A stretch of DNA of 64,000 nt from Vulcanimicrobiota bacterium (GTDB lineage: Bacteria > Vulcanimicrobiota > Vulcanimicrobiia > Vulcanimicrobiales > Vulcanimicrobiaceae): assembly GCA_963723515.1 (NCBI GenBank), contig CAVRQT010000003.1, positions 768,001 through 832,000 on the forward strand, in the 5' to 3' direction. Shown in pieces: positions 1,567-61,040 of this stretch. How positions within the stretch are numbered: the stretch's first letter is position 1; each line of letters starts with the position of its first letter. Both the position numbers and the translations under genes were made by a program. The notes under the pieces were generated by a model, which did not search any database, had not been told where the DNA came from, and saw only the letters and a program-made list of their open reading frames with translations.

Positions 1567-4282
1567 ATGGTGGGTGATGCGCCGCCCAGCGGGACGCTGA
1601 CATTTCTCTTCACCGACATCGAAGGCAGCACGCGTTCGTGGGAGCGCGACGCGAAGCCGCATGTCCGACATCTTGAGCCGGCACAACACGGTTTTGCGCG
1701 ACGCGATCGAAGGCGCGGGCGGCGTTGTCTTTAAGACGGTCGGCGACGCGTTTTGCGCCGCTTTCGCAACGCCGGACCGCGCGCTCAATGCAGCCATTGC
1801 AGCGCAGCGTCAGTTGATTCCGGTGGTCCCGGTGCGAATGGCGTTGCACAGCGGCACGGCGGTTGAGCGTGACGGCGACTACTTCGGCCCAACGCTCAAT
1901 CGCGTCGCCCGTCTTATGGACCTCGCCCACGGTCGCCAAATTCTGCTCTCCGGAGTGACCGCAGCAATTGTGAGAGATGGCCTTTCGGGCACGCAACTGC
2001 GCGATCTCGGCATGCATCGCTTGCGCGATTTGAGCGAACCGGAACGCGTCTTTCAAGCGACAACCGACGATCTGCCGGCGGATTTCCCGCCGTTGCCCTC
2101 CGCTTGACCTGCGACCGCATAACCTGCCCGCACAACTGACGACCTTCGTTGGGCGGGAGGAAGAGTTGCGCGAGCTCAACGCGGCGCTTCGCGCGACGCG
2201 ACTCTTGACGCTCACAGGGCCCGGCGGCATCGGCAAGACTCGACTCGCGCTTGAGGTCGGATCACATGCGCTTGAACAATTTACGCATGGCGTCTGGTTC
2301 ATCGATCTCTCCACAATTCGCGAGGGGGCACGAATACCGGAGACGATTGCCGCGGCGCTTTCGCTGCAAGAGCAGAGCGATCGTTCGCATTGGGATGTCG
2401 CGATCGCATATTTGCGGGAGAAGCAACTTTTGCTCATCCTCGACAACTGCGAACATCTCGTAGACGATTGCGCGCGGCGTGCAAGTGAGATTCTTCAGAA
2501 TGCCGAGGCGGTTCAAGTTCTAGCGACCAGCAGAGAACCGCTCAGCGTTCCCGGCGAGCGGCTTTGGGTTGTGCCGTCGCTGCTTGATGCGCATAGCGCG
2601 GAGGAACGTGCGGATAATCCCGCTGTCAGACTCTTCATCGATCGCGCAATGCTCACCGGCAGCCAACTGGAGCTTACTGACGCTGCACTTGAGACGATTG
2701 CGGAGATTTGTCGCTGTCTTGACGGCATACCACTCGCGCTCGAGCTTGCGGCCTCACGTGCGCAATCGCTGACGCTCGAGGAGATCCTGGGCCACTTGAG
2801 CGATCGTTTTCGATTCTTGGCCTCAGGCGATCGGACGCGGATGCCGCGCCAGAAAACGCTGCGCGGGGCCATCGATTGGAGCTACGATCTGCTGGAAGCG
2901 CGCGATCGTGCGATCTTTGCACGCAGCGCTGTCTTTACCGGAGAATTTAGCCTCGCCGCAGCGGAGGCGATTTGCGCAGACGACGCTATTGCGCAGCATC
3001 GACGTCCTCGATGGCATCTCCGCGCTTGTCACCAAATCATTTCGTCGTGCGGCACGAGCGTGAGCGTGCATCACGCTATCGGCTCCTTGAAACAATGCGC
3101 GAATACGCCCATGAGAAGCTCTCGACGCAGGCCGAAGTCGAGGACGCACGCCGGCGACATTTTGACTTTTATCTGGTGCATGCGAAGCAGCTCGATCGCG
3201 AATTCAGCGCTCGACCGGCCGAAACGCTGCGAGCATTTGATGCTGATTATGAAAACATGCGCGCTGCGTTGGCGTGGGGCTTTGAAGCGTCGTTCGATCA
3301 TAACTGCTTACTGCAACTCGCGACGGCGCTTTCGCGCTACTGGGAAGTCCGTGCCCACGTGAACGAAGGGGGGCTGTGGTTTAAACGCTTACTTCATGGC
3401 TTGGATTCGGTTGAGGCAGACCCGGCTGTTGCCACCGCGTTTGCCAGAGCCGGCCGCATTGCAGGGATGGAAGGCGACTATCGCACTGCAATCGGCAAGG
3501 GCAGGGTGGCGCTTCGCATGCGACGAGCGCTCAACGATGAAGCAGACATCGCTGAATCGCTGAACAACCTAGGCGCCGCGCTAAACGATGCGGGCCGCAG
3601 TAAGCAGGCCGCTGTTCTCATGCGCGAGGCCCTCAAACTCTTTCGTAAGCAAGGCAACCGCAGCGCAGAAGCGCGCCTGCTGTGCAACCTGGGTCTTGCG
3701 GCGATGAATGGCGGCGACCAAAAAATGGCCCTGGAAAGACTTCGCGAGAGCTTGACGCTGAGCGAAGGGTTGAGCGATCTTCGAATGCGGGCGTTCGTTC
3801 TGGGTGCCTTGGGGACGGTTTCTCACCACACGGGCGCGGTCGCGGAATCGTTTGACTACAATTCGCGCAGCCTGGAGATCGTGAGATCGCTAGGCGATTT
3901 CGTCGGTCAAGCGCGCGTTCTGAATAACCTTGCTGATGTGACCTTAGAGACGAACGACCTTCCTGCGGCGCGCAGCCACATCATCGAATGTATCAGGATC
4001 TGTGAGCAGCGCGGTTTGCGTCATGAATATGCCGATGCGCTCGACAATCTCGCGGTTGCCGAACAGCGCTCGGGTCGTTCCGACCTCGCGGCGCAACTGA
4101 TCGGCGCAGCGGACGCAATTCGAACGGCTTCGCGCCAACCGCTTGCGCCGTACTTCGCGTTGCACCGCCAAAAAGTTATTGCGTCAGTCCAGCATACGCT
4201 CGGTACCGAAGGATTCGAACGGCAACGCCTCAGTGGCGAGCAGGCCGATCCGAAGCAGCTAAGTAGAGCGGCCCTCGGCTAG
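1567..4282 (+). CDS. Class III adenylate/guanylate cyclase + NB-ARC-like ATPase + TPR protein (3 apparent frameshifts)
   Basis: TFLFTDIEGST, KTVGDAF, DYFGPTLNRVARL; GPGGIGKTRL, LDNCEH, LDGIPLALELAA; TPR-like C-terminus; spread over ORFs 1462/1661/2166/2972. Confidence 0.88.
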
Positions 4283-23241: not shown

Positions 23242-23907
23242 TCAACGTTTGCGCACCAGCGTCACGCCGTCGCCGATCGGCAGCATCGCAACATCGACGC
23301 GCTCGTCTCGCCCGATCTTAGCGTTGAGTGCGCGCAAGGCTTGCGTGTTCTCGTCGTTTTCGTTCCGATCGGCGACCCGTCCGCTCCAGAACACATTATC
23401 GATTGCGATGAGCCCGTTCGACTTGAGCAGTTCGAGAGCGCGTTCATAGTAGCTATCGTATGCGGGCTTATCGGCATCGATGAACGCGAAATCGAACGTT
23501 CCGCGCTCGCCGCGAGCGAGCAGATCGTCGAGTGTTTCAACCGCCGGGCCGATGCGCAGCAAAATCTTCTCCGCTACACCGGCACTCTTCCAATATCGTC
23601 GTGCGATCGCAGTGTATTGGTCGCTAACGTCACAAGCTACGAGTGTCCCGTCGTCGGGCAGCGCCAGCGCAACCGCGAGCGCACTGTACCCCGTAAAAAC
23701 ACCAACCTCGAGGCAACGCTTCGCGCGGATCAGCCGCACGAGCAGCTGCATGAATTGCCCTTGATCCGGCCCGATTTGCATGCCGGCGTGATCCGGCAAG
23801 AGCCGGTGTGTCTCTTCACGGAGCTCCTGCTGCAACGACGTCTCGCGCAACGAGATGTTGCAAACGTACTCGTAGAGCTCAGGGGACAAGTTTTTTGTAC
23901 GGCTCAT
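23242..23907 (-). CDS. SAM-dependent O-methyltransferase (caffeoyl-CoA OMT family)
   Basis: LEVGVFTGYS, FDFAFIDADK, DNVFWSG. Confidence 0.92.
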   Translation of the reverse strand: MSRTKNLSPELYEYVCNISLRETSLQQELREETHRLLPDHAGMQIGPDQGQFMQLLVRLIRAKRCLEVGVFTGYSALAVALALPDDGTLVACDVSDQYTAIARRYWKSAGVAEKILLRIGPAVETLDDLLARGERGTFDFAFIDADKPAYDSYYERALELLKSNGLIAIDNVFWSGRVADRNENDENTQALRALNAKIGRDERVDVAMLPIGDGVTLVRKR

Positions 23908-23951
23908 CGAGTGCGGGAGTTAGCGGTCGCCGCCTAAAAATCCGCCGCTTG

Positions 23952-25554
23952 ATGACAGCGCGCAATTCACAGCATCGCTACGATGCAATCGTGATCGGCG
24001 CAGGCCACAATGGACTTGTGACGGCTTGCTATCTCGCGCGTGCGAAGCGCAAGGTGCTCGTTTTGGAGCGGCGCGCGGTTGTCGGCGGCGCATGCGTCAC
24101 CGAAGAGACGTTTCCCGGCTTCAAAGTCTCGACCGCTGCGTACGTCAACAGCCTCTTTCGCCCGGAGATCGTGCGCGATCTGCGCCTGAACGACTACGGC
24201 TTCGAGCTTCTGGAGCGCAATCCATCATCGTTCACACCGTTCTTGGACGGCCGCTATTTGATGCTCGGCGCAGATAAAGCGGCGACGTTGCGTGAAATCG
24301 GCAAATTCAGCGCCCGCGACGCTCAGGCGTATCCCCGCTATGAGGCAATGCTCGAACGCGTTGCGGCTGTCGTTGAGCCCACGCTGATGCAAACGCCCTC
24401 GAACGCCGCGCACCCCGGTGCATCCGATCTCTTGAAGATGGCAAAGCTTGGCCGGTCGCTTCAAAAACTCGGAGCCGGCAATGGGCGAGGCGATCGAAGT
24501 CTTGACCGGATCCGCCCGCACGATCCTCGACCGGTGGTTCGAATCGGAGCAGTTCAAGGCGGTGTTGGACACCGATGCGATCATCGGGGCTTTTGCGGCC
24601 CCTTCGATGCCCGGAACCGCCTACGTCCTCTTTCATCATGTTATGGGTGAAACGAACGGTAAACGCGGGATCTGGAGCTACGTTCGCGGTGGAATGGGCG
24701 GCTTAACCCAAGCGTTGGCACGAGCCGCCTGCGACATGGGCGTGGAGATTCGAACCGATTGCGAAGTGCGCCGAATCATCGTCAGAGACGGTGTCGCGAC
24801 GGGCGTTGTACTCTCAAACGGTGCGGAAATTGAGGCGGTTAAGGTTGCCAGCAATGCGGATTGCAACGTGACCTTCAACAAGCTGCTCGACGCGCAAAGT
24901 TTACCCGAGGATTTCAGAGACGCGATCGCGCGCATCGATTACAGCAGCGCATCGCTGAAGATCAACGTCGCGATGTCGGCCTTGCCCAACTTTACCGCAT
25001 GCCCCGGAAACAGCGAACCGGGGCCGCAACATCGCGGCACGATTCATCTCGTGCCCGACCAGGACTTTATCGAACGTGCCTACGACGACGCGAAGTTCGG
25101 TAACCCCTCGCGCGAACCCGTGATCGAATGCACGATTCCGTCGGCACTCGATGCAACGGTCGCGCCGCCCGGCAAGCATGTCATGTCGATGTTCGTGCAA
25201 TATGCGCCGTACACAATCAAGGACGGCACGTGGGACGAGCGCACGAAAGATGAGTTCGCCGACCGGTGTTTTGGGATGCTCGAACGGCATGCGCCCGGAT
25301 TCACGTCATCGGTCCTCGCGCGGCAAGTACTGAGTCCCGTTGACCTCGAGCGTATGTTTAACTTGACCGGCGGCAACATTTTTCAAGGTGCGATGGATCT
25401 GCATCAGCTCTTCATGTTCCGGCCGGTAGCGGGATTTGCGGACTACCGCACGCCGATTCGCAACCTCTATCTGTGCGGTTCTGCGGCGCATCCAGGCGGC
25501 GGCGTGATGGGCGCTGCGGGTCGAAACGCAGCTCGAGAGATGTTGCGGAGATGA
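23952..25554 (+). CDS. Phytoene dehydrogenase-like FAD oxidoreductase (frameshift near 24475)
   Basis: GAGHNGL, GGACVTEE, GGMG, LYLCGSAAHPGGGV. Confidence 0.88.
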
Positions 25555-34702: not shown

Positions 34703-36112
34703 TTAGATTTTTATCGTGACCGTCGTACCGTGGCCAGGGGCGCTATCGATGCGAATGTCGCCACCTGCGCGATCAACGGCGCTTTTAGCAATCGCAAGCC
34801 CAAGACCCGTACCGGTAATCGCTCCCCGTTCGTCGCCCCGGTAGAAACGTTCAAACGCATGCAAGCGTTCTGACTCCGTCATTCCAGGTCCATCGTCGCG
34901 CACCATGATCGCCGTCTTGCCGTCATCACGCGCGGCCCGCAAATGGATCGGCGCGCCCGGTGCATACTTCAGCGCGTTCTCTACAACGTTCCAAAGCGCT
35001 TCGCCGAGTTCAGCGCGGTCTCCGACGACTTGCGACGCGCCGTCGACGCTGTAATCGATCTGGCGTTCGCTGTCGAGTCTTCGGGCGGCGTCGCATTGAC
35101 TGCGCAGCAATTCAGTGAGGTCGATCTGTTCTTGATGCGGCGGCGTTTCTGCGTCGAGCCGAGCGAGGCGCATCAAGCGATCGATCAGCGAACGCATATG
35201 CTCTTTTTCAATTGCCATCGTATTGAGAATCTGTTTGGCGACGTTCGGCTCGGCAACCGCACCACGGCGCAGCACATCGATGTATCCGGCAATTACAGTC
35301 AGCGGCGTGCGCAACTCATGGCCCGCATCGGCTACGAACTGACGCATTCGCTCTTCCGTTCGCCGCCGTTCGTCCATCGAGGCGGCGACATTCGCGGCGG
35401 CCTCATTATACGCACTCGTCAAGGATGCCATTTCTTCACCGTCCGCTAAGAGAAAACGCTGTTGGGCATATTCTCCGCTTGCTAAAGCATGGAGCGCTTG
35501 GGCGACTGACTGCAACGGGCGCAACGCTTGTTTTGAAAAATACCAGCCCAAGAGCCACGCGAGTGCGACCGCGAAAATCGCGATCGTAACGATGATCTTC
35601 CAGTATGGAAGCAACGCAACCCAAATAACACCCAGCGACGGCTCGAAGGCGACAAAGCCGCCGTTTACTTTGGCAAGCCCGATCGGCTCGCGATGCGGTC
35701 CACCCGGCCGGCCGAGCATCTCACGCATGATCATGCGCTGCGCAGGGTTTCCCTCATGCCGCAGCACTGGCGATAGGTTTCCCGGAGAGAGCAGCCGCGG
35801 GTGCAAGTCCTTGTCGCCGGCTAAATAGTGGCCTTGGCTGTCGAAGACCGCAATATTGAGCCCGATTCCGCTTAATTCGTCGATGATGCGCGGCGCGGCT
35901 TGTTTTAGCGACATGCCTTGCGACGCGTATTGATCGGCCAAAATCCGCGCCTCTTCGTGTTTTGCAACCAAGACGTCGCCGCTGAACGCGCCCAACTTCG
36001 AGACCAGAACTAATGACGACGCGATGATCACCATTAGCACGATCACGGCGAGCATCAGTGCATAGGTCGTCGCGAGCCGGGTTGCGATTGACTTATGCAA
36101 GGCCGTACCCAA
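34703..36112 (-). CDS. HAMP sensor histidine kinase
   Basis: FVADAGHELRTPL, NVVENALKY, DDGPG, GTGLGLAI. Confidence 0.95.
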   Translation of the reverse strand: MGTALHKSIATRLATTYALMLAVIVLMVIIASSLVLVSKLGAFSGDVLVAKHEEARILADQYASQGMSLKQAAPRIIDELSGIGLNIAVFDSQGHYLAGDKDLHPRLLSPGNLSPVLRHEGNPAQRMIMREMLGRPGGPHREPIGLAKVNGGFVAFEPSLGVIWVALLPYWKIIVTIAIFAVALAWLLGWYFSKQALRPLQSVAQALHALASGEYAQQRFLLADGEEMASLTSAYNEAAANVAASMDERRRTEERMRQFVADAGHELRTPLTVIAGYIDVLRRGAVAEPNVAKQILNTMAIEKEHMRSLIDRLMRLARLDAETPPHQEQIDLTELLRSQCDAARRLDSERQIDYSVDGASQVVGDRAELGEALWNVVENALKYAPGAPIHLRAARDDGKTAIMVRDDGPGMTESERLHAFERFYRGDERGAITGTGLGLAIAKSAVDRAGGDIRIDSAPGHGTTVTIKI

Positions 36113-36769
36113 CGCCGCGCACCGTGCGCAGCATCGAATTCTCGCCGGCGGTGTCTAGCTTGTTTCTCAAATACGAGATGTACGTTTCAACGATGTTCGT
36201 GCCGCCTTCGAAGTCGTGGCCCCAGACAAGCTCGAGCAAGTGGTCCTTACTGAAAACTCGGCGAGGCTCGCGCATGAAGACGGCGAGCAGTTCGAACTCT
36301 CGCTGCGTCAGATCGATCAGCCGCTCGTTTCGATAGACTTCGCGGGTTTCCAGATTCAACGAGAGATCGCGCCAGCGCAGCGCGACATCTTCGATCAACT
36401 GCGGACGCCGTAAGGCAGCCGTCAGATCTCGCGATCAGCTCTTCGAACTGAAACGGCTTAACGAGATAATCGTCTGCGCCGCTCGTCAATCCCGCAACTT
36501 TATCGCCGAGCTCTCCTTTTGCCGTGAGCATCAGTACCGGCACATGCGGTAATCTTGCGCAGCATCGGCAGCAAGGCAAGACCGTCGATCTTCGGCATCA
36601 TGACGTCGAGCACGATGACTTCAGGCTCCCAGTCACGCACGAGCGTAAGCGCCTGCTGACCGTCGGCCGCCGTGCGCACCGCAAAGCCTTCGCGTTCGAG
36701 CCCAAGCTCGAGCATTTCTCGCACGAAGCGGTCGTCGTCGACGACCGCCACGCGTGATTTGGCACCCAT
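36093..36769 (-). CDS. OmpR-family response regulator (frameshifted)
   Basis: [38 protein letters not shown]. Confidence 0.92.
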
Positions 36770-36779
36770 CGTACCTACC

Positions 36780-37469
36780 TTAGGGGTGCATTTCGGGGCG
36801 CATATGCCCCATCGCTCCCATCAGCAAGTACTTGCCGGCGTCCGGCGTTTGATTCGCACCCATACCGAAGCGGCCGCGCATCGGCATCTGCTCGAACATT
36901 TTGGCTTGATCCGCATTCAGCAGCGGTTTGATTTGGTTGATGGCCGACGCATGAAGCGCCGTCATCTTTGAGTGCGCATCGTTGCCGATTGCGATAACGG
37001 ATTGCTTTTCGCTCGGTGAGAGGATCGCATCGATTTGTGAGACGAGCTTCTCGTGCTGCGCGCGCATCGCGCCGAATTTGCCCATGTCGGGATGCGGACG
37101 CTGTGCGTTCGGTCCCGATGGAGGCATCGCGGGCATCATGCGTTGCATCGAACCGCGTGCTTGATCGATGATCTGTTGCACTTTCGCACGGTGGTCGGCA
37201 GATAGTGCCGCCATTTCGCGATTGTGCGCATCTTCAGTGATCGAGCGCATCTGCGTCATCGTCGAGCGCATGATCGGTTGAATCTTCTGCCGTTGATCGG
37301 CTGTTAGGTTCAGGCGACCAGCAAAACCGTGCGGACCGCCCGCCGGGCCAGCAGCCGGAGCGCCGGGCATCGCAGCGCTCCCACCTGCGGGTGCGCCGCC
37401 TGTATTCTGTCCGCAGGCGGACATGGAAAGAGCTGCCGCCGCAAGGACGGCAATAAATAATGGCTTCAT
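36780..37469 (-). CDS. Spy/CpxP-like periplasmic lipoprotein
   Basis: Lipobox MSA-C; LNLTADQR, LSADHR, LSPSEK, LNADQ repeats; Met-rich. Confidence 0.75.
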   Translation of the reverse strand: MKPLFIAVLAAAALSMSACGQNTGGAPAGGSAAMPGAPAAGPAGGPHGFAGRLNLTADQRQKIQPIMRSTMTQMRSITEDAHNREMAALSADHRAKVQQIIDQARGSMQRMMPAMPPSGPNAQRPHPDMGKFGAMRAQHEKLVSQIDAILSPSEKQSVIAIGNDAHSKMTALHASAINQIKPLLNADQAKMFEQMPMRGRFGMGANQTPDAGKYLLMGAMGHMRPEMHP

Positions 37470-37513: not shown

Positions 37514-37963
37514 CTAGGCGGCTTTCAAACCGCCTCGCCAAGCTTGGTAGCGATGCCGGGCGATGAGGGCTGCTCGCGAGACGTCTTCGAGAGGATGCCT
37601 GTGCAGCGTGACGCCGGCTGCCTCTATCCGTGCCATGATCTCTGCCGGTGGCTCCCAATGCGCATAGAGGTGAATTTCTGGTGCGCCCGTCGACTCGGCA
37701 ATGATGCGCACGAGGTCGTCAAAGCCGCATTCCCCTTGCGCTATGAGGCGAGATGCCACGGCGCCGTCAAATGAAGCCACGCTATAGCCGGAGACGACCG
37801 TCAAGAGCTGCCGCACTTCCTCAAGCGAGGCGCCGTCGAAGTCTACCAGCACGACCTCGGGCTCGTGGTCGCCGTCGAGCTGGGCGTGCAAGGTTGCGCC
37901 GATGATCTTGGCGGTTTCCCCGGTCTCAAGGATGGCGCCGCTGCCGATGAAGTACCCTTCCAT
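37514..37963 (-). CDS. Hypothetical protein
   Basis: Long ORF with ATG at 37963 and protein-like composition. Confidence 0.6.
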   Translation of the reverse strand: MEGYFIGSGAILETGETAKIIGATLHAQLDGDHEPEVVLVDFDGASLEEVRQLLTVVSGYSVASFDGAVASRLIAQGECGFDDLVRIIAESTGAPEIHLYAHWEPPAEIMARIEAAGVTLHRHPLEDVSRAALIARHRYQAWRGGLKAA

Positions 37964-38025
37964 GGTCACAGTGTGCGATTTCAGAGTGCCAACTGGGTGG
38001 CACTTTGCTAAGTGCTGAAAAGACA

Positions 38026-38244
38026 ATGCGGATCATAGCCTGCCTGGCGACGGTCATCCTGATACAAGGTTGCGCCCACCCGGCTGCCCATGGAACGCGC
38101 GACGGTAGTCTCGCTGCGCCTTCCGGCTACCGCTGCGATCAGGAGATCCCACCGCGCCTTGCAGCTGCGTGCCGACACTTTCGCCATATGCTCGCCCCGA
38201 CACCGCCGCCAACAACGCCGTTGCCACTCCGGAAGAAACGATAA
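38026..38244 (+). CDS. Small lipoprotein 1 (YRCD motif)
   Basis: MRIIACLATVILIQG-C lipobox. Confidence 0.6.
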   Translation: MRIIACLATVILIQGCAHPAAHGTRDGSLAAPSGYRCDQEIPPRLAAACRHFRHMLAPTPPPTTPLPLRKKR

Positions 38245-38289
38245 CGATGGAGCCCATCGCGATTTGACGCAGAACGATTGGGCTCGCAG

Positions 38290-38510
38290 ATGACTAATCG
38301 GTTAGCAGTTGTGGCACTCGCCATTTTGCTGATTGCCGGATGTGCGAGGTCAACGCCACGCGCAGCTCCACGTGGCGGCTCCGTTGCGCATCGTCCTTAC
38401 CGTTGCGATCGACTGCCTTCCCAGCGATTAGCCCCGCCTGCCACCGACGTAAGACCGGCGGGCTGGTCGGAGCATTGGTCCCACCGAAGCATCCAGCCCG
38501 TCGCAAGTAA
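38290..38510 (+). CDS. Small lipoprotein 2 (YRCD motif; probable frameshift near 38432)
   Basis: LLIAG-C lipobox; the shifted frame gives ACHRR...RRK* ending at 38510. Confidence 0.55.
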
Positions 38511-38514
38511 CTCG

Positions 38515-39122
38515 CTACGCCGTCGAGGCGAGCTGCGTCCTTTTCCGAGCACCTGACACGAGCAACGCCACCAGCTGATCGACGACCTCCGGATCCCATT
38601 GCGAGCCACGTCCGTGCTGCAGTAACTCCAGGCCCTGTCTAGCCGGAAGCGCTGCACGAGCTTTCGTGGACGAGATCATCGACTGAAATGCGTCGCTCAC
38701 CGCAAGGATCCGCGCCTCAAACGGAATGCTGTAGCCGAACAGCCCATCGGGATAACCCAGTCCGTCAAAGCGCTCGTGATGCGCACGAACGACAACGCGC
38801 AATGCTGCAGTGCGGGAATCTGGTTAAGGATATGTTCCGATGTCACGGGATGCGCCCGGAGTTGCTCGGTTTCTGTCTCCGTCAATGCGCGCGTATTGAA
38901 AACAACCGGATCGGATAGAGCGATCTTCCCCACGTCATGCACAAGCGCGCAGAGCTCAACGTAGGCGATCCCATCGCGCGACAGCCGCATCGCCGTTGCG
39001 AACCGCCGCGCCCATTGAGCCGTACCTTTTGAGTGCGCGTATGTCGTTTCGTCGCGTTCTTTCATCATCGCAAGCAAGCCCATCGCGACTAGAAAGGATT
39101 GCGGCATCATGCTGGGCGGCAT
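38515..39122 (-). CDS. Stand-alone HD-GYP domain phosphodiesterase (frameshift near 38790)
   Basis: D..TY.HS, LVHDVGK, HHERFDGLGYP, RILAVSDAF.SM, QWDP. Confidence 0.88.
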
Positions 39123-39128
39123 GTAATA

Positions 39129-39203
39129 CTAACCGAGATTCGGCGGCATTATCATGATCAAGTGATGCACAAGTGCGGCAAGACCCAACAAGATAAGATG
39201 CAT
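39129..39203 (-). CDS. Unannotated 24-aa peptide MHLILLGLAALVHHLIMIMPPNLG
   Basis: ATG 5 nt after GGGAGGAG; stop 6 nt before the HD-GYP ATG. Confidence 0.7.
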   Translation of the reverse strand: MHLILLGLAALVHHLIMIMPPNLG

Positions 39204-39265
39204 GGTAACTCCTCCCTGAAGACGCCGAGTGTCATAATGTAACCACAGTACGGGTCCGTCGTCCT

Positions 39266-39281
39266 TAGCCAAAACTGACTA
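39266..39281. promoter_or_regulatory. Imperfect palindrome TAGCCA-AAAC-TGACTA, candidate LuxR/NarL-type operator
   Basis: Lies between the LuxR gene stop and the peptide RBS. Confidence 0.5.
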
Positions 39282-39286
39282 TCAAT

Positions 39287-41916
39287 TTAGCGTATGAGGC
39301 CTTCTTGCCGCGCCATGGCAAGGGCTTCCCCTCGGCCACTGCAGCCAAGTTTGTCTATTACGCTTCGGATCTGTGCATGGATGGTATGGATACTGCGCCC
39401 GCGTTCGCTTGCGATTTTTTTCGCGGCGGTGCCGGCCGAAAGAGCTTCTAACACCTCGATCTCCGACCTCGTAAGCCCAAGAATCGCCTGTTGCCTCTGT
39501 TGACGTAACATGTGGAAAACGGCCTCAAGCAGTAATGCGTAGCCGCCGTATTCGTATTTCATGTAGCCACTTAGATCGGCATATAGCATTCTGTCATACG
39601 CTGCGCTCTTAGCAGCCTTAAGCAACACCACGCAAGCAGAGCACAACAATGCCGCGGAGGCGTTTCAGCAAGCTTCTGATTGCGGCGTAGCACTTGAATA
39701 CCATCGTGCTGCGCCCGAGCAGTCCATACGCTAAGCCGATCAGCGCTTCGCGAAGTGCAGCTGCTGAAATTCGTATCGCGAAGACGGCTCGATCTGTTCT
39801 TACGTCTTTAACGCCTGGTCCGCATAACGTAATGCTTCATCGCGCCTTCCATCGGCGCTAAGAAACACAGCGCACTCCGCTCGCCTCAGCGCTCCTAGCA
39901 CCACAAACGATTGCTTGTCGCACAAGCCGCATGTTAGCCGATAGGCCGCCCCAAAGTCTCCTCTCCATGCGAGGCGCATTGCGCGCAATGGTGAAATGAC
40001 TGCTGATCTGAATGGATCGCTCGTATGCAGTGCATCGATTTCATCTTCGAGCTCCTGCATTCGCTGCTCACGACCGCGCCGCGCTTCAATCTCATACATT
40101 TGAAACAACGCTGTCTGGCGCCCTAGTCGGTCGCCACCTTTCGCGGCGCATGAGGCATTCTGTTGCGTGTACCAAAGGCTCTTAGATACGTCCTCATCGC
40201 ATGTCATTTCCGTGACAGCCAAAACGCTGTAAGCTCGAGCCGCCAAGATATAGTAGCCGAGCTCCTCACAAACCCGAGCGGCTTCGGTTGAAGCGGCACG
40301 TGCTGTATCGTAGTCAGCCGTATAAAATGAGGCGAAACCAATTCGTTGCAGACATCTGACTCGGACGCCCTCATTGTCGCAGTCGTCCGCTAATTTAATT
40401 GCGCGTGGAATCAGTGCTTTGGCTGCGTCTATGCGGCCAGCCGTAGCGTGTAGGCTCGCTAGTGCAGCCATTGCTTCAGCACGAAGCCCGGACGGGAGTT
40501 CAGGCGCTCTGGATCAGAGGTTCCAGCGTTGCGATCTCGTTCTTGCCCTGGTTCATCATCAGAATCATCAGCTGAATTGCCGCGGATGCCTTAAACGTCT
40601 CATCCTCACTAAGAGCAATCGCACGTTTGTAGAGATGCTCCGCGCTGTCAAAACGGCCAGCCGCCATCTCTGCCGATGCACGGATCGCGAGCACGCATAG
40701 GATTGTGCGTCTGCATTTCGCTTGGCAAACTTAAGATAGCGCCGCTCACGACGTCACCATGGCCATGCTCTATAAGCTCTAGGCCGCGCCGTTCGATTAT
40801 CTCAAGCGCTTCATCCGCTGCATCAGCACGCGAGAACAATGCCAACGCCTGCGCATCGCGCCCGCTGCACAGTAGAGCTCGCGCAGCCTTCAACTGCACG
40901 CCTCGATACGCTACGTCGCCGCGCTGTCGTAGCTCGTATTGCAAGAAGTCGCGGAACAAATCGTGGCAGCGAAAGCGCTCTTCCGCTTCCTTATATATAA
41001 AGGCAACACGTTGGCGCAGGCGCTCAATAATCGTCTCGGCTCTCTGGATGCCGGCGGAGCGCAAGATCGCTACATCGATTTCCGGCAGAAAAGACGTTAG
41101 CAACAGCAGATCTTCTTGCTCAGGGCTTAGCGACTCGAAGACTTGCTCTGCAAGATAGCGGTAAATCTTTTCCCGCGTCTCGGTTTCCAGATGCTGCAAG
41201 TCGGCCGATCTTAACGTACTGCGCAACGCGAAGGCCAGCGCCGTTGGCCAGCCGCGAGTGAGCGCCAAGATCTGATTAAGCTCGTCATCCCGAACGATCA
41301 CGTGCGCCATTCGTGCGGCACTCCGCGCCTCGTCATAGGTGAATCGTAGATCCATCTCATCGACGCCTAATCCCGTGTCGCCGTAAGCCAACCAGGATGC
41401 GACGGGCAAATCCAATGTCGAACGCGTCGCGATGATCCAGCGAATTTTGGTTTTTGAGCGCTCGATAATCGACGCCACGAACCTGGAAACTTCGGGTTCC
41501 AGTTCTGCAACGTGTAAATCGTCGATCGCAACGAGGCCGTCATATTCTTGGATGTGCGCATACATCCAAATGGCGAGCTCCGTTCCGGGGGACGTTGCAC
41601 TCAGCGCCCCATCGAACGCCTCCGCCAGCGTGTTGCGCAGGTTAGGCGCAACCTCGCTAAACACGTTGACGAGACCGCGCACAAAACCAAGCAGCGTCGC
41701 ATTATCCGCGCGAACATCGTAGCGAAGTGTCGGACAATCGATCGTCGAGAGAAACTGTGTCAGCGCAACAGACTTGCCGTAGCCAGCCGGCGCGACGATG
41801 AGCGTAATGCGCTGTTGCGCTGCCTGCGCGATTCGCTCAACAATACGCTCGCGGTGAATCGGCGTGAAGACGCCGCCGGTGTCGATTCGACCATCAGACC
41901 CAACGGACCGAATCAC
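39287..41916 (-). CDS. MalT-like ATPase-TPR-LuxR transcriptional regulator (at least 3 frameshifts)
   Basis: APAGYGKS, IDDLH, TRGWP, YLAEQV, HDLFRDFL; C-terminal LTRSEIEVL...TIHAQIRSVIDKLG HTH. Confidence 0.88.
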
Positions 41917-42000
41917 AAGTCGCGCTCGCTTAATGCCAAGCGTATGGCACTCCTGCCGCTCACATTATGTGTATAAAACTATCCACAGGATGTGCATACC

Positions 42001-42348
42001 ATGAAAAATTCGCTCGACCAATCGCTATCGAAGATGGAGGCATTGCTGCGTCAGGCAGCCTCGCTGGTCGGTGCGCTCTCTGATGCGCTAGCGACCCAGG
42101 CTCAACCGCAGATTGCCGATGAGAAGCAGGCAGAAAGCATCTACGCTAAGGCCCGACAGCGCCATCCGAATACCGGTAAACCGTGGAGCGGCGAAGCGGA
42201 CGAAGAACTGCGAAAGCTCTTCGAAAGCGGCAATACGATCGAAGACCTTTCGATTTACTTTCAGCGGACGAAAAACGGTGTGCGAGCGCGCCTCGTGAAG
42301 CTCGGCCTACTCGAGGCGACTCAATTTCAACCAAGATTTGTGGCCTAA
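42001..42348 (+). CDS. Hypothetical protein with C-terminal Myb/SANT-like helical motif
   Basis: GKPWS.E.DEEL..LF..G.TI..LS..FQRT..GVRARL.KLG. Confidence 0.65.
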   Translation: MKNSLDQSLSKMEALLRQAASLVGALSDALATQAQPQIADEKQAESIYAKARQRHPNTGKPWSGEADEELRKLFESGNTIEDLSIYFQRTKNGVRARLVKLGLLEATQFQPRFVA

Positions 42349-45300
42349 TGATCTCGCTGTTCGATGTCGTCACCTTCATCGGCCGACGTCGGCGGCTTTG
42401 TAGCGGACGTGGTCGCATGGTCTAGCGGCCGCATATTCAGCCGGACAAGCTGCGCGTTGAGTCCGCCCAACCCGCTGACAAAGGCACTCACGGCGTGCAC
42501 GCGTTCATTCGTGAGCGCGTGCAGCGCTCGTCCTTCGCGCTCTTCTTCCGCTGTCGGTCGCCTGAAGGTGTCGAACAAGAAAAGCTGCGCCTGCACACGT
42601 TCGCGTAGCACATCTTTGAGGAAGTCGTCGTCCTGATCCGCTTTAGGATCGGAAGTCAACGTCGCTTGCAAGGCGGCAGCGCGCGTTCGGGCCGCCGCCA
42701 GTTGAGAGACCAATGCCGGATTGCTGCCGTCCTTTTCCAGCGCATTCTTGCGCGCGTCGCTCTCTCGTTGAATCGTGGACAGCGTGTTCAACGCCGTGTC
42801 AATGCGAGACCAATCGGCGTACATTTCGTGCTCTAAACGATAGCGCGCGATATGATCCAATAGCGTCGCATCGTCACGCGGATCACGATGGACCGTAATC
42901 GGGGCACGCAACGTGCGGTTGTCCACATGAAGCATTATCGAATAAGTCCCTGGCACAACGGTCGCACCACTCTCAAACTGATTCCAATCACCGGTTGAAT
43001 CCCACGCGACCGGCTTGTCTTCGGTCAAATCCCAAGAGAAACGGTTGAAGCCCGCTTGATTCGTCAGGTCAGGCATGCTCTTTCCATTTTCGGTATGCGA
43101 GCGAAATGTGTGCACAACATTGCCGCGCAAATCAACGATCTCCGCGCTCGGGTTGTGTCTTGCCGGCGTACTCAAATAAAATGTGATGATCGCACCGTAC
43201 GGCGGGTTCTCCCCGGCGCCGAGCAAGTTATTGCCACCCGAATGTATCTCGTAGAGATACGCCGGTCGCACCGGGAAGACGTACGTTCCGGCGACTCTTG
43301 CGCGTGATAGCAGCTGAAGTGGCGTCGCGTCATCAAGAATCCACGCACTACGCCCGTGCGTGCCGATCAGAATGTCATCAAAATCAGGCTGTACGCGAAT
43401 GTCGCGCACGGACGCAGCGGGTAAATTCTGCCGGAACGATTGCCAACGCGCTCCACGATCGAAGGAGACGTAGAAACCAAATTCCGTCCCAAGGTACAGG
43501 ATCGATCCATTGCGCGGATCCTGTCGGATGCTGCGCGCATAATCGTCCGCCGGTAAACCGGTCGTAATCGTGTTCCAATGACGTCCGAAGTCAGCGGTTT
43601 TGAACACATGCGGCGCCTTGTCGCCGATCATGTGCCTGTCGTAAATGACGAACGCCTCGCCTGGATGTTGATTCGATGCGGAGATGCTTGCAAAACGGCC
43701 GAACGGTCGAATGTTGGTCGGTGTAACGTTGCGCCAATGTTTGCCACCGTCGCGCGTTAGCTGCACGAGACCATCGTCCGTGCCGACCCAAATTTGGCCG
43801 CGCGCAACTGCCGAAGGCTCGATGTATAAGATCGTCTCCGATGTTTCTGCGCCGGTTCCCTCGCGCTGCGCGCCGCCGGTCATCACCTCATGCGACCGGA
43901 GGTTGCGCGTCAAATCGGGGCTGATAACCGCCCAATGTTGGCCACGGTCAGATGATTTGAAAACGACGTCGCCTGCAGCGTACGCAACATGCGGATCAAA
44001 AGGATCAAAAGCGAGCGGCGTCTCCCAATTAAAGCGGTAGCGCAACTGCGAGGGTGACGTGGCATTTTGGTCGCGCAAATAAGGCGACGCGGCGATGGTC
44101 TGCTTCGTCCGCTCGTTGAGAATGTCGATCTCGCCGCCATTGTTACCGCCGCCGCTCGTCAACCATGTGTAATTCCGATTTGCTGGATCGGGAATCACCC
44201 AGGTGCCATCACCACCGCCGACGTCTTCCCACTGCGCCGCGACGATGCCGCGCGGCGTGAGCGAATGGTTCGGCGCGCACCAAACGCCGTTGTCCTGCAG
44301 CGGCGCGCAAACCCGATACGGATTTCCACGATCGTAGCCGATGTGGTACAGCTGCCCGATCGGAATCGTGTTGTGCCAATTCCACGTTGCGCCGCCATCG
44401 CGTGAAAATGCAACGCCGCCATCGTTGCCTTCGATAATCCGTTTGCCGTCTTGCGAGATCCACATCGCGTGGTGATCGCCGTGAATGCGCTCGCCGGTCT
44501 TCTTCCACGTTTTTCCACCATCATTGCTGACGACAAGGTGTACTGAATCCGACCAAAGATGGTCTTCGTTTGTCGGATCGACGTAAAGGCGGCTGAAATA
44601 AAACGGACGCTGATTGATATTGCTGTCGCTCGAGATGAGTTGCCAACTCTCGCCGCCGTCGTCTGAACGCCACATGCGCCCCTGACTGGATTCGATTACG
44701 GCATAAACGCGATGCGGATCCGACGGCGCTACGGCCAGGCCGATTCGACCAACTGTATCGGTGGGCAATCCGTGGCCCTGCAGTTTTTGCCAGGTGGCGC
44801 CGCCATCAGTGGAGCGAAAAATTCCATCGTCCGGACCGCCGCTATTGGAAGACCAACCGGTGCGCCGGTATTGCCACATGCAGGCAAAGATAACGTTCGG
44901 CGCTCGCGGGGAACTCGCAAGATCGCAGCCGCCGCTCGATGGACCCAGATACAATGTTCGCGTCCACGTTAGGCCGCCGTCCGTTGAACGATAGATTCCG
45001 CGCTTTGTGCTATCTGCAAATGCATCGCCGAGCGCTGCGACAACAATCGACCGTGGATTGCGGGGATCGACAAGGATCTTTGCGATTGAAGCGGTGCCTT
45101 GCAAACCGGAAAGCGCCCATGTTTTTCCGCCGTCGCGAGAAACGTAGAGCCCGTTTCCTGGAATGACATCGTTGCGCGGATTCGCCTCACCCGTGCCGGC
45201 CCAGACAACGTCCGGGTTTGCCGGATCGAGCGCCAGCGCGCCAATCGCCGCCACGGGTTGGTCATCGAAGAGCGGCGTCCAATCGGCTCCGCCGTTGGTG

Positions 45301-59466: not shown

Positions 59467-59666
59467 TTTTGAACCTTTCTAATTAAAGATCGGCAGTTCA
59501 CGGCCGCGTTCATAATTAAACCCGAATAGTGGTGCAGTGCTGTATCCCGCGTCCTCAAATCCGGGCTGCAAGCCGCCGAAATACTGGCGGAGCACAAGGG
59601 CGCACGCCCGCCGCCCTTCGCTGTGGCGACAGCCTTTCCACCCATGTTGGTGGTTGGATCGTAGCG

Positions 59667-61040
59667 CTAGTGCACCAAGAGCAAGAGCGAAGCGCCATAG
59701 AGCGAGCGCGACGAAGCTAATTACGGTGAAGCCCATGACGCGGCGGATGCTGATGCCGGCGATCGCAATAATCGGTAGAGCCCAGAACGGCTGTATCATG
59801 TTCGCGACTTCTTCTCCCATCGCAACGCCCATGCTTGAAGCGGCTTGTGAAGCGTGCAGATGCACTGCCGCTGGAACCACAAACGGACCTTGCACCGCCC
59901 AGTGGCCGCCGCCGCTCGGAACAAATAGACTGATGATCACGGAAGCGATGTAACTCCAGAACGGCAGCGTCGCTGCGGTTGAAAAGGCGACAAAGCCTTG
60001 TGCGATGACGCCTGCGAGCCCGGTACCCGTCATCAACCCCATGATTCCGCCGTAAAGCGGATACTGCAGCATCAACGGTCCCGTGATGCTCGCCGCGTTG
60101 TTGACGGCTCGCACGTACGCGATCGGGCGCCAATGAAGCAGCAGCCCAAGGATTAGAAAGATGAAGATTACGGACTTAATGTCGAGCGCAAAGCCGGTCG
60201 TTGCCCATGTCACGACAATGTAGGCGATGCCCGCTGAAGGCAAGGATAAGATTCAGGATCCACGCATTCTCGAGCGCACTCGCGAAGGTTCGGCCCGATG
60301 ACGCAAGGTGGGGCCGGTTCATCTTCTCGACGCAAGCGCTCGGCGTCGGCGTAAACCGATGCGCTTGCCGGCGGCTGCATCAACGTGTAGATGATCGGAA
60401 TAGCGATCAGCAACACGATGACCGGCACGAGATTGAACGCCGTGAAGATCGACTGACTCAGCGGCACAATGGCGCCGGTTAGCTTGTGCACGATATTCAA
60501 GTTCGAGCCTGGCGTTGCTTGAGCGAGAGCAATCGAGCTTGAAAGGCCGCTCGCCCAGATTAAGAAGCCCGAGTACGCGGCGGCGACAAGCCAGCCGAAG
60601 TCGACGCGAACCCGTTTCGCAATTTCGCGAGCCATAAGCGCCGCCACGATTAATCCGAATCCCCAGTTCAGCCAGCAGGCGACGGCGGAGACGAGGAACG
60701 TGACGACGATCGCTTGACGCGGCGTCGTCGCGAACGACGCGATTGATTCGAGGGTGCGGCGAATCGGTTTCGCGTTCGCGAGCGCGTAGCCGGTCACGAG
60801 AATTAAGATCATCTGGAACGCGAATTCCAAGATGTTGAAGATTCCGGCGTACCAAGCGCCGAGGAGCTGCATCGGCGCGTGATGCGGCGCGAAGATTAGC
60901 GCGAGCACTGCGGTCAGCAGCGTTAGGAGCACAGCGAGCAGGTACGGGTCCGGCAGTATGCGTTCGAACAGCGCGACGAAAGCGCCGACGATCGCGCTTA
61001 ACGGCGAAGGGCGTTCTGCCACGTCTACATTGGTTGCCAT
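59667..61040 (-). CDS. atoE: Short-chain fatty acid transporter (AtoE/TIGR00366; frameshifted)
   Basis: LPDPY, FAFQM.LIL.TG, NWGFGL, QYPLYGGI, VPSGGG.W, QPFWALP. Confidence 0.85.

Follow-up and report, generated by a model that had tools for sequence, protein, structure and literature searches.

A 64,000-nt stretch of the Vulcanimicrobiota bacterium assembly GCA_963723515.1 (contig CAVRQT010000003.1, positions 768,001 to 832,000), hereafter the window, to which all coordinates refer, was found to carry on its minus strand a 24-codon open reading frame (ORF) between the gene of a MalT-like transcriptional regulator and an HD-GYP gene. Judged by its conservation in related genomes, this ORF is a real conserved gene, and both the small gene family to which it belongs and the module it forms with its neighbors are, as far as we can see, new. 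The module plausibly represents a new peptide-based signaling circuit, in which the role we tentatively regard as the most likely for the small product is that of a peptide cue, exported and processed, that provides feedback to the circuit.

The order of the elements, read 5′ to 3′ on the minus strand, is regulator, inverted repeat (dyad), −10-like hexamer, ribosome-binding site (RBS), 24-codon ORF and HD-GYP gene, as listed below. An earlier note on this DNA, which had described a regulator, a palindrome, a strong RBS, a 24-amino-acid (aa) ORF and an HD-GYP gene 6 nt further on, had thus placed all of them correctly.

39287..41916, minus strand: MalT-like regulator with STAND NTPase, tetratricopeptide repeats (TPR) and LuxR/GerE helix-turn-helix (HTH); stop codon TAA at 39287-39289
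~41916-40672, 40697-40494 and 40510-39293, minus strand: pieces of the regulator, with a further frame change at ~39800-39620
39266..39281, minus strand: imperfect 16-bp dyad TAGTCAGTTTTGGCTA, a candidate operator, beginning 5 nt past the regulator stop
39236..39241, minus strand: −10-like hexamer TACATT, starting 32 nt downstream of the dyad centre
39209..39216, minus strand: Shine-Dalgarno (SD) sequence GGGAGGAG, 5 nt ahead of the small-ORF ATG
39129..39203, minus strand: small ORF of 24 aa, MHLILLGLAALVHHLIMIMPPNLG, stop codon TAG; hydrophobic core and PPNLG tail, without Cys
38515..39122, minus strand: short HD-GYP gene without N-terminal sensor domain; Pfam HD_5, frame split near 38797, in-frame ATG at 39122, 6 nt past the small-ORF stop

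Conservation of the small ORF

Ninety-one loci were fetched for the regulator 3′ end, and removal of two without a regulator end, of the window's own truncated copy and of duplicates left 77 loci from relatives in Candidatus Baltobacteraceae/Eremiobacterota, a family of poorly studied soil bacteria; a genome collection was scanned with an alignment of seven sequences. A small hydrophobic ORF of the family type was chosen by script at the same position in 65 of these 77 non-redundant loci; the 65 represent 32 genus labels and include L060, L064 and L112 from the unpublished genomes G022, G046 and G116. Conservation of a short ORF beside homologous regulators had been fixed beforehand as a test that could overturn the proposal of the earlier note, and the ORF passed it. 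The ORFs start 35-131 nt (median 97) past the regulator stop, on the same strand and upstream of HD-GYP. Their length was 20-29 aa in 54 of the 65 loci (24 aa in the window) and 35-50 aa in the remainder. An SD-like core was present at −15..−4 in 49/65 loci, and ATG served as the start codon in 47 of the 54 short ORFs. The codon composition was equally distinctive, with T 43%, C 40% and A 5% at codon position 2 and a third-position GC content of 72% versus 52% GC in the intergenic sequence. Stop codons were distributed as TAA 32, TAG 28 and TGA 5 (n=65), the share of TGA being 45% in the long frames of the window's genome (G000).

Twelve of the 77 loci had been set aside before counting, and ten were inspected afterwards. 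Among these, L124 was shown to hold a 22-aa member overlooked by the scoring, L131 and L146 atypical ORFs of 29 and 42 aa, and L145 and L148 repeat-bearing lipoproteins, while L138, L144 and L149 displayed other arrangements, L139 was ambiguous and L137 is weighed below. The other two, L150 and L151, had been fetched as tandem or paralogous regulators and showed only poor candidate ORFs and no HD-GYP match.

The encoded peptides consist of a hydrophobic core of ~14-19 residues followed by a Pro-rich tail. In the same-genus reference genome (G001), a 24-aa counterpart with an RBS was found at the same place, whose hydrophobic core is identical to that of the window at 7 of 19 positions and whose PPNLG end is identical. 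Throughout the 65 loci, Pro occurs within the last nine residues in 61, PP within the last ten in 43, and Gly is the last residue in 48; the tails nevertheless differ within a genus. The "MPP-like tail" ascribed to the peptide earlier was therefore sustained as a Pro-rich tail ending in Gly and not as an MPP motif of the family. No K, R, D or E is present in 38/65 peptides. A Cys residue is located at the core/tail boundary in 27/65, often in a lipobox-like context after small residues, and 15/65 fit a relaxed lipobox pattern; the lipoprotein character applies to part of the family only, the window and G001 peptides having neither Cys nor, accordingly, a lipobox. Furthermore, four lineages possess canonical mini-lipoprotein precursors of 44-50 aa (MRR...LAAC) at the same position and behind the same dyad, one 35-aa ORF contains three copies of VVPVGGA, and one 86-aa lipoprotein with five heptad repeats is encoded between the dyad-promoter and the HD-GYP gene.

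Meanwhile, the small ORF was kept in loci without HD-GYP (L123, L129, and L060 and L064 from G022 and G046) and in those where the HD-GYP sensor domain has been lost (window and G001), which implied an association with the regulator and not with HD-GYP. As a separate matter, the idea that the small ORF is a severed HD-GYP N-terminus or is joined to HD-GYP by stop read-through was rejected: the two are in frame in the window and G001 but in 26/59 cases across loci (one-sided p=0.056, from related data), which was treated as chance, and HD-GYP orthologues have a soluble helical domain at their N-terminus in place of small-ORF sequence.

The dyad, the regulator and the downstream genes

The window dyad belongs to a conserved element, CTAnnnAAATTTnnnTAG(A)GAC, whose family consensus, gcCTAcT.AAATTT.AgTAGaGaC, is situated 60-90 nt upstream of the small-ORF ATG. 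Since the window dyad is unremarkable alone, an exact-seed inverted-repeat search of the window having returned nothing at this site, its weight comes from the comparison across loci. The dyad arms were perfectly paired (6/6) in 35/65 loci versus 2.5% in shuffles, and paired at 5/6 or better in 51/65; moreover, the inner arm triplets covary between genera (GTG/CAC, CCC/GGG, CTT/AAG) with retention of the symmetry. The dyad and a TAnnnT hexamer 30-33 nt downstream of its centre were found together in 45/65 loci. The dyad pattern is rare in G000 and G001, and only the module copy has an AT-rich spacer; among the four matches in the window's genome, this applies to one.

A scan for the sigma-70 consensus identified none in 38400-39500. 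Taking TACATT as the −10 element, a role that we infer from its placement, the dyad centre would lie near −44 and abut the −35 region, which is the position used by LuxR-type activators. The conserved dyad and the regularly spaced TAnnnT thus fit an operator beside a promoter, and the adjacent MalT-like regulator probably binds the dyad through its LuxR-type HTH. The former suggestion that the palindrome is an operator hence gained from a conserved dyad with promoter geometry in related loci, while the window copy itself is imperfect, with 4/6 pairing. No Rfam family matched at E<=1 across 38000-42400.

As for the regulator, its pieces matched Pfam AAA_22/STAND NTPase, TPR_12 and GerE, and nSTAND was also among the matches. 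The G001 orthologue is intact (876 aa), and by tblastn the window matched it in three frames, with identities of 72%, 68% and 51%. A profile built from 27 orthologues, which measure 874-883 aa, matched E. coli MalT (8bob_C, E 4e-20) at positions 20-407, TPR proteins at positions 474-630, and the HTH structures of GerE, NarL and VraR at positions 795-874. By this domain content, with a predicted N-terminal STAND P-loop NTPase and C-terminal LuxR/GerE HTH, the regulator is of the MalT/LAL kind. It was detected in 0/32 cases in the sister family at E<=1e-30. The domain identities given in the earlier note were confirmed by Pfam; the note had overlooked the broken frames, at least four in the regulator and two in HD-GYP.

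Several observations concern paralogues of the regulator. In G118, G147 and G067 (genus label g60), two tandem paralogues precede the small ORF, as in L111, and the interval separating the two contains no such ORF. Regulator paralogues with 33-35% identity to that of G001 (L092-L110) are followed in 16/19 cases by a lipoprotein of ~390-430 aa within ~40 nt. These lipoproteins contain 2-5 tandem units after the lipobox, ending in LPG or MPG (DNPSALPG five times in one), and, despite their protease-like look, the three tested matched no Pfam family. Export signals combined with short Pro/Gly-rich repeats thus recur behind several regulator clades.

The gene order from regulator to HD-GYP is kept across the family. 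In the window, the motifs LVHDVGK and HHERFDGLGYP are on two frames, Pfam HD_5 matched two ORFs at positions 7-99 and 102-170, and the identity to the 199-aa G001 protein was 85% and 89% in these frames; 17 orthologues retain the HD and HHExxDGxGYP motifs without exception. In most genera the protein has 322-338 aa, including an N-terminal domain of ~135 residues without a Pfam family. Whereas the HD-GYP assignment is solid, the "stand-alone" form is consequently a peculiarity of the window's genus. An AlphaFold model of a full-length relative (L044:300-1283, predicted local distance difference test (pLDDT) 86) was compared with representative solved PDB chains using VIA-align. Its C-terminal part matched PmGH (4mcw_A; Z 22.5, root-mean-square deviation (rmsd) 2.5, 184 aligned, 35% identity) and PA4781 (4r8z_B; Z 21.8, rmsd 3.0, 189 aligned, 35% identity), and also a relative specific for cyclic GMP-AMP (5z7c_A; Z 17.9, rmsd 3.6, 175 aligned). 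From its motifs and fold, the protein presumably hydrolyzes cyclic di-GMP (c-di-GMP). The all-helical N-terminal domain (residues 1-125) resembled the globin-fold sensor pXO2-61 (3pmc_B; Z 12.3, rmsd 3.0, 120 aligned) and RsbR-N (2bnl_A; Z 11.5, rmsd 3.0, 117 aligned), with Z values that are merely suggestive for an all-helical domain. A profile of this domain matched 84 of 296 sampled family genomes, the window's genus not being among them, and 0 of 105 genomes from other families of the phylum.

The genes further downstream in the window are as follows.

37514..37963, minus strand: p149, an intact 149-aa protein of no known family, 72% identical to that of G001
36247..36769, minus strand: OmpR-type response regulator, identified by Pfam, split in the window
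34703..36112, minus strand: HisKA/HATPase sensor kinase, identified by Pfam

Among the genes that follow the small ORF, p149 (145-151 aa in relatives) is the most constant, being present in 11/11 loci with enough flank; in L129, L060 and L064, which lack HD-GYP, it directly follows the small ORF, and L123 ends too early. Fifty distinct homologues were found in the fetched loci, and a collection of 1.84 billion proteins yielded only 59 representatives at E<=1e-3. Searches with p149 found no Pfam family, no sequence match in the PDB below E 0.1 and nothing with Foldseek at E<=0.001, and its Atlas scores were <0.8; its longer distant matches likewise have no Pfam family. Despite a confident model (pLDDT 91.3), the best VIA-align match, 8a5d_U (Z 5.3, rmsd 4.1, 109 aligned), was unconvincing. 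Conserved His and Asp residues (H26, D41, H98 and H123) hint at a catalytic or metal site.

A response regulator and a histidine kinase follow p149 in 11/11 loci with enough flank. The response regulators are 78-82% identical versus ~40-50% for the module, so this two-component system may be a mere neighbor. Between p149 and this pair, the window has a lipoprotein gene (MKPLF...SMSACGQ; ~36780-37469, minus strand) with a counterpart at 2880-3206 of the G001 locus L002; it occurs only in the window's genus and has no Pfam match, and its LNLTADQRQKI motif is reminiscent of Spy/CpxP-type periplasmic proteins. On the plus strand, a 92-aa ORF with a lipoprotein-like start (38278-38556, LAILLIAGCAR) overlaps the HD-GYP 3′ end; its G001 counterpart is at L002 2105-2350, minus strand.

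Possible roles of the small product

In the circuit that we propose, the small ORF would be the first cistron of an operon continuing with HD-GYP and p149, and the −35 region of the operon promoter would abut the conserved dyad, bound by the LuxR-type HTH of the regulator. The small-ORF product would be a signal-peptide-like pre-peptide, whose hydrophobic core would target it to or through the inner membrane and whose Pro-rich tail ending in Gly would be the functional part. The exported, processed cue would then feed back on the circuit as in Rgg/SHP, being received after re-import by the cytoplasmic TPR sensor of the regulator, and c-di-GMP hydrolysis by HD-GYP would be one output. The small gene and its conservation, the geometry of dyad and promoter and the domain identities are directly shown by the sequences. 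Binding of the dyad by the regulator, export and processing, the contact between peptide and TPRs, and c-di-GMP as the substrate are the steps that we infer.

The retention of the tail while the core drifts, the boundary Cys and mini-lipoproteins, and the multiplied tail unit all favored an exported and processed peptide. In addition, an M50 protease was found in 5/5 genomes, LspA in 4/5 (not found in G000), and 8-24 SBP_bac_5 matches per genome; the presence of this processing and import machinery, together with the TPRs of the regulator, made a receptor role plausible. Intragenic duplication is reported for Phr-type signaling propeptides (PMC10075063).

Several points weigh against this interpretation. 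The basic N-region of the classical Sec/SHP type is missing, there being no K/R within the first eight residues in 59/65 peptides, and the window's and many other peptides have neither Cys nor an obvious cleavage site. A lipidated or membrane-embedded peptide would be a poor diffusible signal in a diderm, and the cultured member of the family has a Gram-negative envelope (PMC9758169). The neighboring sensor kinase could be the true receptor, and in L137 the regulator and p149 are present and the small ORF is absent. The loci come from related genomes and are not independent trials, so that their counts overstate the independent support. Finally, the regulator and HD-GYP frames are broken in the window's own copy of the circuit, through either decay or assembly error.

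With regard to this last point, the window copy could quite conceivably be a dead relic, in which real frameshift mutations have left the intact small ORF behind, an explanation compatible with any function in the relatives. Relative to G001, the regulator reads in at least four frames with internal stops and HD-GYP changes frame at ~38797, and these five disruptions in 3.4 kb are denser than the window background, for which three split genes are confirmed in ~60 kb (the response regulator at 36247-36769, an amine oxidase at 23808-25554 and a short-chain fatty acid transporter at 59479-61040). The only paralogous regulator in G000 reads with eight stops (7 TGA and 1 TAA), the window dyad is down to 4/6 pairing over 6-nt arms that are perfect (6/6) in G001, and the 2.1-Mb genome is small for its family. 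Against decay, the assembly also splits genes that cannot be dead, namely a class-I aminoacyl-tRNA synthetase in two frames (G000:C3:645682-647317) and three SBP_bac_5 genes, and it is 88% complete for four contigs. Both rpoB and rpoC have uninterrupted frames. The long regulator is likewise broken in L081 (G091) and L084, both from assemblies with Mb-scale contigs, and intact in short-contig assemblies, and the amino-acid identity of its N-terminal part (72%) is not below the DNA identity (70.5%). Among public reads, for which one DNA run with a small share and no RNA run were listed, contigs cleanly spanned 41461-41611 and 41670-41820 only, which include no frameshift site; the indel contexts relative to G001 were not clearly homopolymeric in an alignment that is merely 65% identical. 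Given the split genes across the assembly, including the tRNA synthetase, indel noise seems likely, which limits pseudogene calls here; with the regulator and HD-GYP frames broken in the assembly, the circuit may be inactive in the window's organism.

A different function, which we consider possible but somewhat doubtful, is that of a membrane-anchored mini-protein that does not diffuse. Held by a single helix, or by a lipid anchor in the Cys-containing members, it would modulate in cis, within the producing cell, the sensor kinase, HD-GYP or p149, or would tether or inhibit the regulator, a part that membrane partners play for MalT. The lack of charge in 38/65 peptides and of a basic N-region in 59/65 is more in keeping with a tiny membrane protein than with a Sec substrate, the response regulator-kinase pair follows p149 in all 11 loci, and the globin-like HD-GYP sensor domain of most genera could take a hydrophobic ligand. 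A precedent is DbfQ, encoded beside DbfRS, which binds the kinase sensory domain (PMC12714742). On the other hand, a merely docking helix would not be expected to have its tail unit repeated in tandem or to be replaced by mini-lipoproteins, and cores of ~14-19 residues are short for a membrane span. The persistence of the ORF without HD-GYP or its sensor domain and the unequal conservation of the two-component system and the module, described above, likewise argue against such a function.

Far less probable, in our estimation, is a cis-acting leader, in which ribosome pausing at the Pro-Pro tail would tune downstream translation or transcription and the peptide would have no job of its own. 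Pro-Pro pausing can be elongation factor P-dependent or can take the form of a TnaC-like arrest. The frequent PP (43/65) and terminal Gly (48/65), the short distance from the ORF end to the first aligned residue of the N-terminal domain of the next gene (median 39 nt, n=50), and the unusual stop usage, with TGA in 5/65 versus 45% genome-wide, are consistent with a leader. This reading was weakened by the variable distance from PP to the stop, by the downstream gene differing between lineages, and by the lack of stable RNA structure from the ORF 3′ end to the next start (mean z 0.05, 3/54 below −2, mononucleotide shuffles); there was also no Rfam family match, and neither a conserved hydrophobic core nor a lipobox-like Cys would be required of a leader peptide.

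Finally, a chance open frame in the intergenic spacer, which might be suspected given that the ORF is short and of a kind rarely reported by gene callers, and that the window's peptide is absent from a 15-billion-protein collection (4/10 members looked up are present there, unnamed or as 'hypothetical protein'), has a negligible probability, as position, length class, start, RBS, composition and tail are kept across the 65 loci and as a screen of the full 2.1-Mb genome singled out the window's ORF alone among 973 RBS-led ORFs of 18-32 aa as having a hydrophobic core, a tail Pro and at most one charged residue.

Extended beyond the single locus, the exported-peptide interpretation would define a new class of peptide signaling in Baltobacteraceae, an idea that we put forward as speculative. 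The cytoplasmic receptor would be a STAND ATPase of the MalT type instead of an RRNPP protein, and a pre-peptide of 20-27 aa, or in some lineages a mini-lipoprotein or a multi-copy repeat precursor, would be the source of the signal. The complex would activate the dyad-controlled promoter, amplify the peptide and lower c-di-GMP via HD-GYP, and the tail variants within a genus would be pherotypes.

Encoded peptide signals with an adjacent cytoplasmic receptor are textbook knowledge for Firmicutes. To our knowledge, they are essentially unknown in Gram-negative phyla, and we know of no MalT-type STAND regulator with a known peptide ligand. If the proposed circuit is true, a Gram-negative candidate phylum with a single cultured species would use peptide quorum sensing through a receptor of new architecture. 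The module offers a concrete test case with defined parts that recur across 32 genus labels, namely the gene of the putative receptor, the 18-bp dyad with its promoter, the 24-codon gene and an output through c-di-GMP. Intact loci can supply all of these parts for reconstruction in E. coli. A small-protein family so far without annotation and two orphan domains, the globin-like HD-GYP sensor and p149, are further additions to the phylum; even if the product is only a membrane partner or a leader, the module still shows that conserved genes of fewer than 30 codons are missed by gene callers.

Comparison with known systems

In the open-access literature, we found no STAND-LuxR/LAL regulator with a cognate small ORF, and quorum sensing in Eremiobacterota appeared only in passing mentions; the remark that no system of this architecture has been described thus agreed with our survey, which found no published description in that literature. 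TnaC is a regulatory arrest peptide of 24 aa. The small ORF is similar to it in size and in having a Pro-containing C-terminal end directly upstream of a regulated gene, but differs in its hydrophobic core, lipobox-like Cys, repeat variants and lack of conserved RNA structure. The HD-GYP protein shares motifs and fold with PmGH and PA4781; its N-domain, which the window's genus lacks, is globin-like and helical instead of a receiver domain.

MalT responds to maltotriose and recognizes MalT boxes, which are asymmetric and repeated. The regulator shares with MalT and the LAL proteins the module of nucleotide-binding, helical and winged-helix domains and arm, the superhelical repeat sensor and the C-terminal LuxR-type HTH, whereas the module has just one 18-bp dyad, near −44, and a peptide gene next to the regulator. 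Small membrane proteins that modulate a sensor kinase include MgrB, which acts on PhoQ. In DbfQ-DbfRS, a small exported product is likewise encoded beside a two-component system (PMC12714742). The small ORF differs in being far smaller, in lying on a promoter beside a STAND regulator, and in having one or two genes between it and the response regulator-kinase pair.

The closest likeness was found with Rgg/SHP. According to PMC3150281 and PMC13361665, unannotated hydrophobic ORFs of 22-23 aa lie in these systems beside a TPR transcription factor, the activity resides in the C-terminal 8-9 residues ending in Gly-Gly (DIIIIVGG), the promoter of the peptide gene is the target of the regulator and drives downstream genes too, and both Eep, an M50-type protease, and the Opp oligopeptide permease are needed. 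The order of regulator, operator, peptide gene and output genes is the same in the module. Unlike Rgg, whose HTH is N-terminal (PMC3150281), the putative module receptor is a STAND NTPase of ~875 aa with a C-terminal LuxR/GerE HTH; the module peptides, moreover, have no basic N-terminus, have a Pro-rich tail and in many cases a lipobox-like Cys, and come from a Gram-negative host.

The five-criterion signature of RRNPP systems, as given in PMC10075063, comprises a propeptide of 10-100 aa (validated examples 21-50) that is secreted (by Sec, or by PptAB for SHP and PrgQ), a receptor of 250-500 aa (validated receptors 285-473 aa) that contains TPRs, and direct neighborhood of the two genes, with a reference intergenic distance of −50 to 191 bp. 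The module has the small propeptide, the neighboring genes and the receptor TPRs in common with this signature, while its putative receptor, at 874-883 aa versus 250-500 aa, is outside the size range. With regard to secretion, the peptides show a hydrophobic core, in 27/65 a lipobox-like Cys and in four lineages canonical lipoprotein signals, but in 59/65 no basic N-region. The quorum-sensing-like module that the earlier note had inferred is partly supported; its gene layout parallels Rgg/SHP, and its receptor size does not extend to RRNPP. Among the known systems, the module resembles Rgg/SHP the most, but it is not an RRNPP member.

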